Source: Alphaproteobacteria bacterium
GTDB taxonomy: Bacteria; Pseudomonadota; Alphaproteobacteria; MPNO01
NCBI GenBank assembly: GCA_965205995.1
Contig: OZ242200.1
Span: 19,233-83,232, forward strand
Reading direction: 5' to 3'
DNA length: 64,000 nucleotides
Numbering within the stretch: the first letter of the stretch is position 1; each line of letters starts with the position of its first letter. Shown piece after piece: positions 60,934 through 62,819 of this stretch. A program made the position numbers and the translations under genes. The notes below the pieces were generated by a model. It was not told where the DNA came from. It did not search any database and saw only the letters and a program-made list of their open reading frames with translations.

Positions 60934-61239
60934 CTAAAACCCCGCCCGCGAGGCCGGCTTGATCGCGATGGCGAAGCTCGCGCCGGTGCCGCCGCAGCAG
61001 GGGCACGAGATCGAGTCGAAGATTTCGCGGCGCTGCTCCGGCGAGATATCCGCGTCCGCCAGCAACTCCTCGACCTGGCGGCGGACCGCCACGTGAACGG
61101 GATCCGGAGGCCGGCTCTCCCCGCCGGCGGGCGGCGCCTCGTCGACCGGGCTCCGTTCCGCCTCGCGGGCGGCGCGATAGAGCGCGCGAAACGGGCCGGT
61201 GAGGTTGAGATACCGCTTTTCGCCGAGTCCGCCCGGCAT
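60934..61239 (-). CDS. hypothetical small protein (101 aa) with C-terminal CPCCGG motif
   Basis: C-terminal portion of ORF 60934..61761 starting ATG 2 nt after ComE-like stop; very high GC3; ...REIFDSISCPCCGGTGASFAIAIKPA. Confidence 0.4.
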   Translation of the reverse strand: MPGGLGEKRYLNLTGPFRALYRAAREAERSPVDEAPPAGGESRPPDPVHVAVRRQVEELLADADISPEQRREIFDSISCPCCGGTGASFAIAIKPASRAGF

Positions 61240-61241
61240 CT

Positions 61242-61850
61242 TCAGTTCTGCGGCGCGCCCGGGTGGATGACGACGCCCTCCAGCCGCTCGACATAGCGGA
61301 GGAACCGGTACTTGTCCTCGATCCCGTCGGTCGGTTTGCGGTCCTTCCACTCCCAGGGATGCTTGCCGGGCTCGATCTTGGCGACGAGATAGCCCATCTC
61401 GCCGTCGTCGAGCATCGCGGAGAAGCGCGCGGCCAGCGTGTCCGGGTCGCCGACCGTCGCGCAGTTGAGGCAGCCCGCGCCGTCGGCCATGCGGGCGAGG
61501 TCGGTGTTCTTCGAGGTCAGGGTCGGCGGCCCGCCGATATTCTCGTAGATGCCGTTGTCGAAGACGAGCACGGTGAGGTTGGGCGGACGCTCGGCGCCCA
61601 GGGTACAGAGAATGCCGGTGTTCATCAGCATCGAGCCGTCGCTCTCGAAGGCGACGATGCGGCGATGCGGCAGCGACACCGCGAGCCCGAGCGCGGTCGA
61701 GGTCACCGATCCGAGCACACCGGTGAAGAAGGTGTTGTCGGCGGGCTTCAAATTCCACCAATCGTCCCAGGTCGCCCCGATCGAGGTCGTCACCAGGTCG
61801 TCCGCCGTTATCAGCGGCGCGATCGCGCGGAACGCATCAATCCTCTGCAT
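61242..61850 (-). CDS. ThDP-dependent decarboxylase beta subunit (sulfopyruvate/phosphonopyruvate decarboxylase ComE-like)
   Basis: 202 aa; ThDP PP-domain with GSMLMNTG...N motif (ESDGSMLMNTGILCTLGAERPPNLTVLVFDNG). Confidence 0.7.
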   Translation of the reverse strand: MQRIDAFRAIAPLITADDLVTTSIGATWDDWWNLKPADNTFFTGVLGSVTSTALGLAVSLPHRRIVAFESDGSMLMNTGILCTLGAERPPNLTVLVFDNGIYENIGGPPTLTSKNTDLARMADGAGCLNCATVGDPDTLAARFSAMLDDGEMGYLVAKIEPGKHPWEWKDRKPTDGIEDKYRFLRYVERLEGVVIHPGAPQN

Positions 61851-62370
61851 AGGCGGGGCGCTCCACGCAGTTGCCCGAGAACACCAGCGCGACCGGCCAG
61901 TTGCTGCCGTCGGCGTGTTTGAAGGCGCGCTTGATCGCCGGCTTGATCTCGTCGGGCTCGGTGACGAAGCGGTGCGGAATACGCAGAGATTCGAGGATCG
62001 GCGCCATCGTCTGCGCGTGGTTGTGGCCCCACCAGTTCTGCTCGCCCCATTCGCCGCGATAGCTCATCGCCATCACCATCGGCACGGCGTGCTGGAAGGC
62101 GAGCCGCGCCACCGGCTCGCAGCACTGGCGGATGCCCGAATTCTCCATGATCATCAGCGCCCGCTTGCCGGCCAGATAGGTGCCGGCGCAGATCCCCGGC
62201 ATGTCGCCCTCGTTCGACACCTGGATGTAGCGGATCGCGTTGTCCGCCGCGCACAGGCGGTAGACGCTCGCGAGCAGCGATTCGGGAAGCGCGGCGACGA
62301 CGCTGACATCGGCCTCCTTCAGCCCCTCGACAAACAGCCGCGCATATTCGGGGACCGCGTCGCCGGTCAT
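61837..62370 (-). CDS. ThDP-dependent decarboxylase alpha subunit (ComD-like, Pyr domain)
   Basis: 177 aa after trimming ORF to MTGDAVPEYARLFVEG; Pyr-domain with conserved Glu (IQVSNEGDMPGICAG); ATGA overlap with coxG. Confidence 0.7.
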   Translation of the reverse strand: MTGDAVPEYARLFVEGLKEADVSVVAALPESLLASVYRLCAADNAIRYIQVSNEGDMPGICAGTYLAGKRALMIMENSGIRQCCEPVARLAFQHAVPMVMAMSYRGEWGEQNWWGHNHAQTMAPILESLRIPHRFVTEPDEIKPAIKRAFKHADGSNWPVALVFSGNCVERPAYAED

Positions 62371-62819
62371 GACGACTGGCCCTCCGCCTTCTCGCGGAAG
62401 CTGTCCGCGAAATCCCGCCCGAGGTCGCGCGCCTTCTTCTTCATCACGCCGAGCCCGAACCTGCCGAGCCGGCCGAAGACCGAGACGTCGGACGCGTAGG
62501 CGATTTCCGTCTTGCCGTCGACCTCCGTCAGCGCAAGCGTGCTCGTCGCGTTGAGCGTGCTCGCGCGGCCGCCTTCCTCGCCCCTGGTGGTCGAGGCCGC
62601 GAAATGGGGCGCACGCTCCTCGGTCTTTTCGACGGTCACGGAAAACGTGGTCTTGATCGGCCCGACGGCGAGCCTGATGTCTGCCTTGTAGGTGGTCGGG
62701 CCGGTCACCTCGACTCCCTGGCAGCCCGGGATGCACGGACCCACCACCTCAGGGTCGGTGATCATCGACCAGACCCGCTCCAGCGGCGCATCGACGGTGA
62801 AACTGTCCTCGACCTGCAA
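62367..62819 (-). CDS. coxG: SRPBCC family protein (CoxG/carbon monoxide dehydrogenase subunit G-like)
   Basis: 150 aa; MQVEDSFTVDAPLERVWSMITDPEVVGPCIPGC typical CoxG/polyketide cyclase fold. Confidence 0.75.
   Translation of the reverse strand: MQVEDSFTVDAPLERVWSMITDPEVVGPCIPGCQGVEVTGPTTYKADIRLAVGPIKTTFSVTVEKTEERAPHFAASTTRGEEGGRASTLNATSTLALTEVDGKTEIAYASDVSVFGRLGRFGLGVMKKKARDLGRDFADSFREKAEGQSS

Follow-up and report, generated by a model that had tools for sequence, protein, structure and literature searches.

A split thiamine diphosphate decarboxylase candidate of a distinct clade and a widespread family of small CPCCG proteins, found together in an alphaproteobacterial gene string

Two-subunit decarboxylases that use thiamine diphosphate (ThDP) had been known only from the biosynthesis of coenzyme M and of rhizocticin (ComDE and RhiEF respectively) until a third, LumKL, was reported with the reconstitution of lumichrome catabolism in Nocardioides simplex (PMC12746152, 2025). 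In that pathway the first steps fall to three hydrolases (80, 24 and 52 kDa), the two-subunit LumK/LumL (20 + 23 kDa) decarboxylates 3-oxo-quinoxaline-2-carboxylate, a reaction on a heterocyclic α-imino acid that the report calls new for ThDP, and the xanthine-oxidase-like LumJ hydroxylates the product. Here we describe a gene pair for an enzyme of this build in a 64,000-nucleotide stretch (the window, G+C ∼69%) of alphaproteobacterial contig OZ242200.1, where it stands in a string of four minus-strand genes between a coxG gene and a gene for a 101-residue protein ending ...SISCPCCGGTGASFAIAIKPASRAGF. Judged by their sequences, the two subunits very probably form a split ThDP decarboxylase belonging to a distinct clade of the ComDE/Ppd superfamily, and the small protein is a member of a widespread family that has not been described.

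The string begins with coxG (62367–62819), which encodes a CoxG/SRPBCC protein of 150 residues and has a TTG start codon with GGGGAG upstream, and continues with the genes for the Pyr (α) subunit (61837–62370, 177 residues) and the PP (β) subunit (61242–61850, 202 residues) of the ThDP enzyme, and with the small gene (60934–61239), which ends 30 nt from the stop codon of hyuB. All four genes had been proposed in an earlier sequence-only reading of the window and all are present, although the ATGA- or GTGA-type overlaps that were said to join them apply only in part: the coxG stop codon and the Pyr start form a true ATGA overlap, but the Pyr and PP genes overlap by 14 nt (ATGCAGAGGATTGA), and the PP and small genes do not overlap, being separated by a 2-nt spacer (TGA-AG-ATG). 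Almost every locus of the ThDP clade, across phyla, retains the 14-nt overlap, and the whole CoxG-Pyr-PP-small string recurs in 13 loci of species-representative metagenome-assembled genomes (MAGs; L009–L018, L020, L022 and L043), all belonging to a Defluviicoccus-like alphaproteobacterial clade, so that the conservation of neighborhood which the sequence-only reading had put forward as a check is indeed found. The four-gene arrangement is not due to chance. The genes themselves are real, since the G+C content at third codon positions (GC3) is 0.87–0.92 in each of them and the small open reading frame (ORF) has a dN/dS of 0.22–0.39 against eight relatives, with mostly third-position substitutions. 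The idea that the small ORF is a shadow of a plus-strand gene was rejected on the same two properties of its substitutions and because no long plus-strand ORF lies there. A scan of 60.7–63.1 kb detected neither a sigma-70 consensus promoter nor a convincing terminator, and a scan of 56–64 kb gave no match to any Rfam family, the TPP riboswitch included; the 136-bp intergenic region (62820–62955) that separates coxG from the divergent acyl-CoA synthetase gene is correspondingly without a sigma-70 consensus site or an Rfam match.

The ComDE-like split enzyme that the sequence-only reading saw in the Pyr and PP products holds at the superfamily level, with ComD, ComE and Ppd as the top NCBIfam models. 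In Pfam, the PP subunit matches TPP_enzyme_C (4.4e-12) and the Pyr subunit matches TPP_enzyme_N weakly, below threshold. The Pyr subunit scores 91.6 bits against ComD (TIGR03845; equivalog cut-off 147.95) and the PP subunit 101.9 bits against ComE (TIGR03846; cut-off 221.5), while the respective Ppd scores (TIGR03297) are 76.4 and 85.4 bits against a cut-off of 312.5. Ten more-distant PP subunits were tested in the same way, and those of Methanothrix and Methanocrinis alone exceed the ComE cut-off, at 234 bits. We have therefore rejected membership in the ComDE sulfopyruvate decarboxylase equivalog, as both subunits lie under cut-offs that the methanogen controls pass, and membership among the phosphonopyruvate decarboxylases, in view of the Ppd scores and of the absence of a phosphoenolpyruvate (PEP) mutase both within 10 kb in L007, the locus of the window's own genome, which reaches past the window, and among the 25 commonest families of the neighbor census given below. 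An acetolactate-synthase-like enzyme, a single chain of ∼550 residues with Pyr, middle and PP domains, was also rejected: the subunits are separate (177 + 202 residues), and acetolactate synthase models reach at most 28 bits on either. The sequence-only reading had named clustering with enzymes of that type, together with a small ORF that is not conserved, as findings that would count against it; the ORF is conserved, the subunits are not acetolactate-synthase-like, and on both points the reading has stood. The enzyme is thus of the ComDE/Ppd superfamily but lies outside both characterized equivalogs.

The catalytic Glu is kept in the Pyr subunit, within NEGD, the ThDP/Mg motif of the PP subunit reads SDGS...x26...DNGIYENIGG, and the clade bears a C-terminal extension of its own (KPTDGIEDKYRFLRYVE..IHP). 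Database searching with the PP subunit yields 577 clusters at E≤1e-10, the best 120 of which are all at least 64% identical, and a genome scan for the family yields 70 loci (L009–L078), all from MAGs or single-cell assemblies and none from a cultured isolate, a distribution that the pattern-based scan may have biased. Half of these loci (35 of 70) form one group at 58–96% identity that spans Alphaproteobacteria, Planctomycetota, Solirubrobacterales and other Actinomycetota. In a neighbor-joining tree the window's clade (L009–L043) is monophyletic and far from genuine ComE, with MAGs of anaerobes (Halobacteroidaceae, Atribacteria and Dysosmobacter) as its sister group. Two Defluviicoccus-like MAGs also carry a second, paralogous split Pyr/PP pair (∼30% identity; L071:7449–8585 and L078:7449–8585) adjoining an AMP-binding gene; this pair belongs to another uncharacterized bacterial clade, below the ComE cut-off.

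Comparison with the other split enzymes gives a similar picture. With ComDE the window enzyme has in common the separate Pyr and PP subunits, the adjacent overlapping genes, the catalytic Glu, the ThDP motif and the best-scoring curated hidden Markov models, but it is only 28% (Pyr) and 34% (PP) identical to ComDE of Methanothrix, has its C-terminal extension and the motifs MENSG and NWWGH, and lies outside any coenzyme M or sulfolactate context. RhiEF (PDB 9IZ3/9IZ4) and the fused Ppd are of the same superfamily, and the likeness extends to the heteromeric α/β composition and the DGS...DN motif for ThDP; however, the PP subunit is 32% identical to RhiF over 114 aligned residues, the RhiE match is 50 bits, no PEP mutase is nearby, and the His of the RhiF segment H-E-S-T-G-G-Q is Tyr in the window enzyme. 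The closest solved homologue is a split 'thiamine pyrophosphate enzyme' of 168 + 194 residues (PDB 9U8Q, 9U8R and 9U8S, with six chains per subunit in each entry). It matches the Pyr subunit at 104 bits and 39% identity over 152 residues, with MENSG and NWWG common to both (chain 9u8r_A has the full clade motifs MENSG and NWWGH), and the PP subunit at 61 bits and 35% identity, but has DNRLYESG instead of the pattern DN[GE][IM]YE[NS]I of the window's clade.

Loci at 58–80% PP identity (L023–L042) provide the informative comparison of genomic context; in what follows genes were called with a crude GC3-based procedure, and the labels of neighbor clusters were checked against Pfam and NCBIfam for representatives only. 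A molybdenum (Mo) hydroxylase of the CoxM/CoxS/CoxL type (CoxMSL) lies within 8 kb in 14 of these 20 distant loci, and in four (L032, L034, L039 and L042) it adjoins the Pyr-PP pair or is co-directional with it; L032 and L034 have a single co-directional string, HyuA-HyuB-γ (Acetone_carb_G)-isochorismatase-CoxM-CoxS-CoxL-Pyr-PP. We compiled the Pfam families of 127 neighbor proteins from 18 distant loci. Prominent among the 25 commonest families are MoCoBD_1/2 and ABC_tran (13 each), FAD_binding_5 (10), Fer2_2 (7), the Bmp and NMT1 binding proteins and Hydantoinase_B (6 each), Isochorismatase (5) and Amidohydro_1 (3), and there is no PEP mutase, Xsc-type, or sulfonate- or phosphonate-specific family among those 25. 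Within 10 kb on either side in L007 we likewise found no PEP mutase, Xsc, sulfolactate dehydrogenase, sulfite-handling or coenzyme M synthesis family. The sulfonate or phosphonate pathway proposed by the sequence-only reading thus loses its footing on three counts: the scores below cut-off, the position of the clade apart from ComE, and the lack of such genes in the neighbor census.

The CoxG assignment made in the sequence-only reading is secure, with a match to Pfam COXG (PF06240) at 8.1e-21 and 74.7 bits (gathering threshold 22.2) over residues 6–145; among solved chains the nearest is 8uds_D, of the CoxG family (5e-17). In L025, L027 and L035 an orthologue at 46–52% identity directly precedes the CoxMSL genes, and most loci of the ThDP clade have no adjacent CoxG. 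Because CoxG precedes CoxMSL in the distant loci, the CoxG-Pyr-PP order of the window looks derived, the Mo genes having been lost or moved. A published report (PMC12202499) describes CoxG as extracting quinone and carrying it for Mo-CO dehydrogenase, and on this account the window's CoxG may be an accessory of a Mo enzyme. Literature searches on CoxG together with sulfopyruvate decarboxylase gave nothing relevant.

The described system that these neighborhoods most resemble is the lumichrome cluster. A xanthine-oxidase-family hydroxylase, ring-opening or amide hydrolases, transporters and a Rieske oxygenase accompany LumKL, and the same enzyme classes flank the distant loci of the clade. Both the enzyme classes and the order in which they act agree with the lumichrome pathway, which gives us our best-supported mechanistic model. 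The genes at 62370–61242 would then encode a heteromeric α/β ThDP decarboxylase of an uncharacterized clade in the two-subunit superfamily of ComDE, RhiEF and LumKL. In this enzyme the PP subunit would hold ThDP through its SDGS...DN motif and the conserved Glu of the Pyr subunit would activate it; the ylide would attack the C2 carbon of an α-oxo or cyclic α-imino carboxylate, with loss of CO2. The enzyme would serve the catabolism of an N-heterocyclic or cyclic-amide compound, hydrolases first opening or trimming the ring, the ThDP enzyme then stripping the remaining carboxylate, and a Mo hydroxylase of the xanthine oxidase family next oxidizing the newly exposed C-H or aldehyde carbon, an order modeled on LumH/I/M, LumKL and LumJ. 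The co-translated CoxG would serve such a Mo enzyme as an accessory for binding quinone or for docking at the membrane, and the 101-residue protein would be co-transcribed with the ThDP genes only secondarily, its most recurrent partner being the adjacent ATP-dependent hydantoinase/lactamase HyuAB. There are differences from the Lum system in any case. LumJ is a single 140-kDa chain, whereas the Mo enzymes of the clade are of the three-subunit CoxMSL type with CoxG; ring opening would fall here, unlike in the Lum system, to ATP-dependent enzymes of the HyuAB type; of the Mo-enzyme genes only coxG adjoins the pair in the window, the nearest CoxMSL being 8 kb off and not orthologous to those linked to ThDP genes; and the 10 kb to the left and to the right of the small gene contain no P450 or catechol dioxygenase.

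The small protein had been set down in the sequence-only reading as one without a nameable family, and this is confirmed: neither it nor any of 42 diverse family members has a credible match in sequence searches of Pfam, NCBIfam and PDB. It is nonetheless far from isolated, as conservation of the ORF, which that reading also proposed to examine, extends well past close relatives. There are 24 close clusters, all of ∼100 residues, and exhaustive HMMER searching with a subsequent profile search expands the family to at least 815 clusters at 90% identity, of 60–130 residues; every cluster that carries a source annotation is labeled 'hypothetical protein'. The members of this wider family are alike only over their C-terminal 55 residues, and among the 42 diverse members H49, C79, C81 and C82 are invariant and Q55, L74, P80, G83 and S88 nearly so. 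We define the H-x29-CPCCG family accordingly as proteins of 60–130 residues with a C-terminal domain that has an invariant His and Cys-x-Cys-Cys, then Gly; the window protein fits this definition and scores 95 bits against the family profile. The conserved residues make a His+Cys3 metal site probable and a role in metal binding plausible. An AlphaFold2 model (pLDDT 76, pTM 0.38) shows three main helices, with the CPCCG tail modeled at low confidence; a Foldseek search with it against PDB gave no match. We also note that a protein of 1700 residues (P0025) matches residues 18–59 of the small protein in 25 stretches (E 9e-42), which is probably a matter of repetitive or low-complexity sequence rather than true relationship.

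One known small protein that invites comparison is the zinc subunit of acetone and acetophenone carboxylases (Acetone_carb_G), which also is small, contains Cys and stands beside genes of the hydantoinase A/B family. It differs in having two CxxC pairs where the window protein has one H...CxCC motif, there is no similarity of sequence or fold, and the small gene is convergent or divergent to hyuAB rather than within the operon. The identity was rejected for the small protein, since Acetone_carb_G (PF08882) is absent among the 25 most-matched families of the 42 members, listed up to E=1, while the γ subunit of L032 matches it at 1.5e-07 as a positive control. A genuine Acetone_carb_G gene does occur between hyuB and an isochorismatase gene in L031, L032 and L034, encoding a Cys4 subunit of 90 residues (L032:2626–2898 and L031:14515–14796), and the 'hydantoinases' linked to ThDP and Mo genes are therefore three-subunit enzymes.

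Convergent with the small gene, and tail-to-tail with it through hyuB, are hyuA (57056–59140, plus strand, 694 residues; Pfam Hydant_A_N, Hydantoinase_A and Hydant_A_C) and hyuB (59137–60903, plus strand, 588 residues; Hydantoinase_B, 6e-151), for the A and B subunits of a hydantoinase/oxoprolinase. The best NCBIfam model for HyuA is caprolactamase α, at 495 bits against a cut-off of 1000, and among solved chains HyuB is closest to N-methylhydantoinase 7hk5 and to 6yra_B, which was deposited under the name 'Hydantoinase'. The three distant small-protein genes examined on long contigs are all convergent with a nearby HyuB-HyuA pair: in L082 they stand directly tail-to-tail, in L079 one small ORF intervenes, and in L080 the pair is two genes off. 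We retrieved 80 metagenome loci with the alignment of one small-protein subfamily, and HyuA/B are found in 25 of them, HyuB being convergent downstream in 17, HyuAB divergent upstream in four and co-directional in one. In long alignments (for HyuB at least 230 residues), the HyuB proteins beside distant small genes are 63–73% and the HyuA proteins 60–67% identical to those of the window, with 52–59% over most short fragments (55–59% for HyuB). HyuAB-linked proteins are spread over most clades of a tree built from the small domain, that of the window protein included. Because the neighboring HyuAB are orthologous to the window's, the most recurrent conserved association of the small gene is with hyuAB (57056–60903), and its co-transcription with the ThDP genes is specific to the window's clade. 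The sequence-only reading, which placed the small protein as an accessory in one operon with the decarboxylase, is right as to position, the gene lying 2 nt behind PP, but is weakened by wider comparison: 22 of the 35 ThDP-clade loci are without the small gene, and L004 has it without ThDP genes, still flanked by the acyl-CoA synthetase operon and by HyuB-HyuA. In three further loci (L083, L085 and L086) the convergent downstream gene is not hyuB but encodes a protein of ∼620–720 residues that by eye resembles an IorB-type Mo-binding subunit, and an Amidohydro_2-like gene lies upstream.

Taken as a whole, the explanation combining a heterocycle decarboxylase, coupling to a Mo enzyme and a small protein that works with HyuAB seems to us quite possible, though still somewhat short of probable; the gene models, the family placement, the separation of the clade and the neighborhood statistics come directly from the data, and the substrate class, the coupling to a Mo enzyme in the window's genome, metal binding by the His+Cys3 site and a partnership or physical interaction of the small protein with HyuAB are what we infer. 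Several observations weigh against it. The likeness to LumK and LumL, both pairs being two-subunit ThDP enzymes of about 20 + 23 kDa, is drawn from the published description; the tree that sets the clade apart is without bootstrap support; and literature searches on the codes 9U8Q–S found no published function for the closest solved homologue. The CoxMSL-like hydroxylase of the window (49432–53065, minus strand, annotated with Pfam; FAD subunit 52205–53065, 2Fe-2S subunit 51729–52205, Mo subunit 49432–51726) has no adjacent coxG, and it was rejected as an orthologue of the ThDP-linked Mo hydroxylases and is a paralogue of them, because its CoxL is only 32–36% identical to theirs where the PP subunits are 70–78% identical; indeed, no orthologous Mo hydroxylase, isochorismatase or amidohydrolase gene lies within 10 kb in the window's own clade. 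The HyuAB near distant ThDP genes are also paralogues of the window's, as HyuB is 28–33% identical (HyuA 29–38%). About two thirds of the broad set of small-protein loci show no HyuAB, other neighbors are recurrent (Amidohydro_2, TctC, FAA hydrolase and MsrA/GlcG), some loci lying in MsrA/GlcG/TctC or Amidohydro_2 contexts, and the small gene hardly ever shares its direction with hyuAB, although a subunit gene usually would. Finally, local synteny is weak evidence of common function here, because housekeeping and catabolic genes are mixed, pyrF among them.

A more conventional role, which we consider unlikely, is that of an aliphatic or aromatic 2-oxo-acid decarboxylase whose aldehyde product is oxidized to the acid by a Mo aldehyde oxidoreductase with CoxG, the acid then being activated by the divergent acyl-CoA synthetase and processed by acyl-CoA dehydrogenase, enoyl-CoA hydratase and 3-hydroxyisobutyrate dehydrogenase, for example in a branched-chain 2-oxo-acid bypass. 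The Mo-hydroxylase model matches do include PaoC, glyceraldehyde dehydrogenase and a pterin-type aldehyde oxidoreductase, the AMP-binding ligase that is divergent here is co-directional with Mo hydroxylase and ThDP genes in L029, and the acyl-CoA genes form a co-directional cluster with hyuA and hyuB (53853–60903). These acyl-CoA genes and the ligase are conserved, however, only within the Defluviicoccus-like clade, where descent predicts such synteny, and pyrF in the divergent operon shows that unrelated functions are mixed in the neighborhood, whereas the distant loci bear amidases, hydantoinases and nucleobase-type (Bmp) transporters instead. The sulfopyruvate or phosphonopyruvate decarboxylase of a sulfonate or phosphonate pathway, as first proposed, has on its side the top curated models, some public annotations that name relatives 'sulfopyruvate decarboxylase subunit beta', and an ABC binding protein in several distant loci whose likeness to SsuA/TauA is weak (58.6 bits, cut-off 163.5). 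We regard it as very unlikely in light of ComD and ComE scores of about half the equivalog cut-offs, where methanogen ComE reaches 234 bits, the separation from ComE in the tree, the absence of pathway families within 10 kb in L007 or among the 25 census families, and the replacement by Tyr (Y-E-N-I-G-G) of the His in the RhiF segment H-E-S-T-G-G-Q.

The remaining two possibilities concern the partners of the enzyme. CoxG might present a quinone that oxidizes the ThDP-bound enamine, making the enzyme a flavin-free 2-oxo-acid:quinone oxidoreductase with the small Cys-rich protein as an electron or metal mediator. The ATGA coupling of coxG to the Pyr gene, its position directly before Pyr in 15 loci with no Mo hydroxylase between, and the quinone handling described for CoxG-family proteins (PMC12202499) would fit; the deeper-branching loci, on the other hand, place CoxG upstream of CoxMSL and away from the ThDP genes, and most of the clade has no CoxG adjacent. 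This makes the quinone-reducing enzyme extremely unlikely, and we know of no precedent for transfer from ThDP to quinone without flavin. The other reading, distinctly improbable to us, makes the small protein a third subunit dedicated to the decarboxylase, or a factor for its maturation, and takes the nearness of its gene to hyuB as incidental: within the narrow family its gene is 2–16 nt behind PP in 13 species-level loci, and L009 and L022 retain the ThDP and small genes with no HyuAB within 8 kb. Yet its absence from most of the ThDP clade, its occurrence in L004 with HyuAB and without ThDP genes, and the habit of distant family members of adjoining orthologous HyuAB and never ThDP genes all point the other way.

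Public pipelines label members of the clade 'sulfopyruvate decarboxylase' or 'acetolactate synthase-like', labels that would wrongly seed inferences of sulfonate cycling in metagenomes. If the enzyme is LumKL-like, the clade marks islands in soil and wastewater bacteria where N-heterocycles (vitamins, nucleobases, pesticides) are catabolized, and if it acts on heteroaryl carboxylates, the single example of LumKL becomes a common catabolic module. The small protein is a candidate partner for the common HyuAB enzyme, whose composition has been assumed to be of two subunits, and its family, which has 815 clusters or more and lacks a model in Pfam and NCBIfam, is well delimited for definition as a new one. 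The combined proposition, that this MAG-only clade is a widespread heteroaryl-carboxylate decarboxylase priming N-heterocycles for Mo hydroxylases and that the H...CPCCG proteins are a metal-binding third component or regulator of a conserved ATP-dependent lactamase/hydantoinase of the HyuAB type, to which they are encoded convergently, is more demanding, and we hold it to be doubtful.

The flanks of the string are themselves conserved in the Defluviicoccus-like genomes, with acyl-CoA synthetase, FlK-like thioesterase, orotidine monophosphate (OMP) decarboxylase and CMD-family genes on one side and HyuB-HyuA and the genes for 3-hydroxyisobutyrate dehydrogenase, enoyl-CoA hydratase and acyl-CoA dehydrogenase on the other. 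The divergence from an acyl-CoA synthetase gene that the sequence-only reading reported is correct: an AMP-binding protein (Pfam AMP-binding 7.8e-68) is encoded on the plus strand from 62956 to 64000, its first 348 residues, and continues past the window edge. In L007 this gene is followed by FlK-like thioesterase, pyrF and CMD-family genes, and we have down-weighted this divergent operon as part of the same pathway, the OMP decarboxylase being a housekeeping PyrF that exceeds the PyrF equivalog cut-offs. The pyrF gene (L007:5596–6315, ∼4 kb past the right end of the window) has a 4-nt overlap with the FlK-like thioesterase gene, and an operon with acyl-CoA synthetase and CMD-family genes is an odd setting for pyrimidine biosynthesis.

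On the other side, the plus-strand genes at 53853–60903, for an acyl-CoA dehydrogenase, an ECH_1/ECH_2 hydratase-hydrolase, a 3-hydroxyisobutyrate-dehydrogenase-like protein, HyuA and HyuB, run in one direction, 0–105 nt apart, and are conserved as a string throughout the Defluviicoccus-like clade; they may constitute one operon linking valine-type acyl-CoA chemistry to an ATP-dependent lactamase/hydantoinase. Beyond CoxL, ORF N-termini at 43769–49404 resemble, by eye, those of UbiD-type decarboxylases and luciferase-like monooxygenases, as well as Amidohydro_2 enzymes and α/β hydrolases, and this region could be a further island for aromatic or heterocycle catabolism. At some distance, an ORF of 548 residues on the plus strand (8199–9845) beginning MSERVAAGEIVAAFLEAAGVD... 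resembles, by its N-terminal sequence alone, a single-chain ThDP enzyme of the acetolactate synthase type that would be unrelated to the split pair; it clusters with ORFs that look SDR-like and α/β-hydrolase-like.

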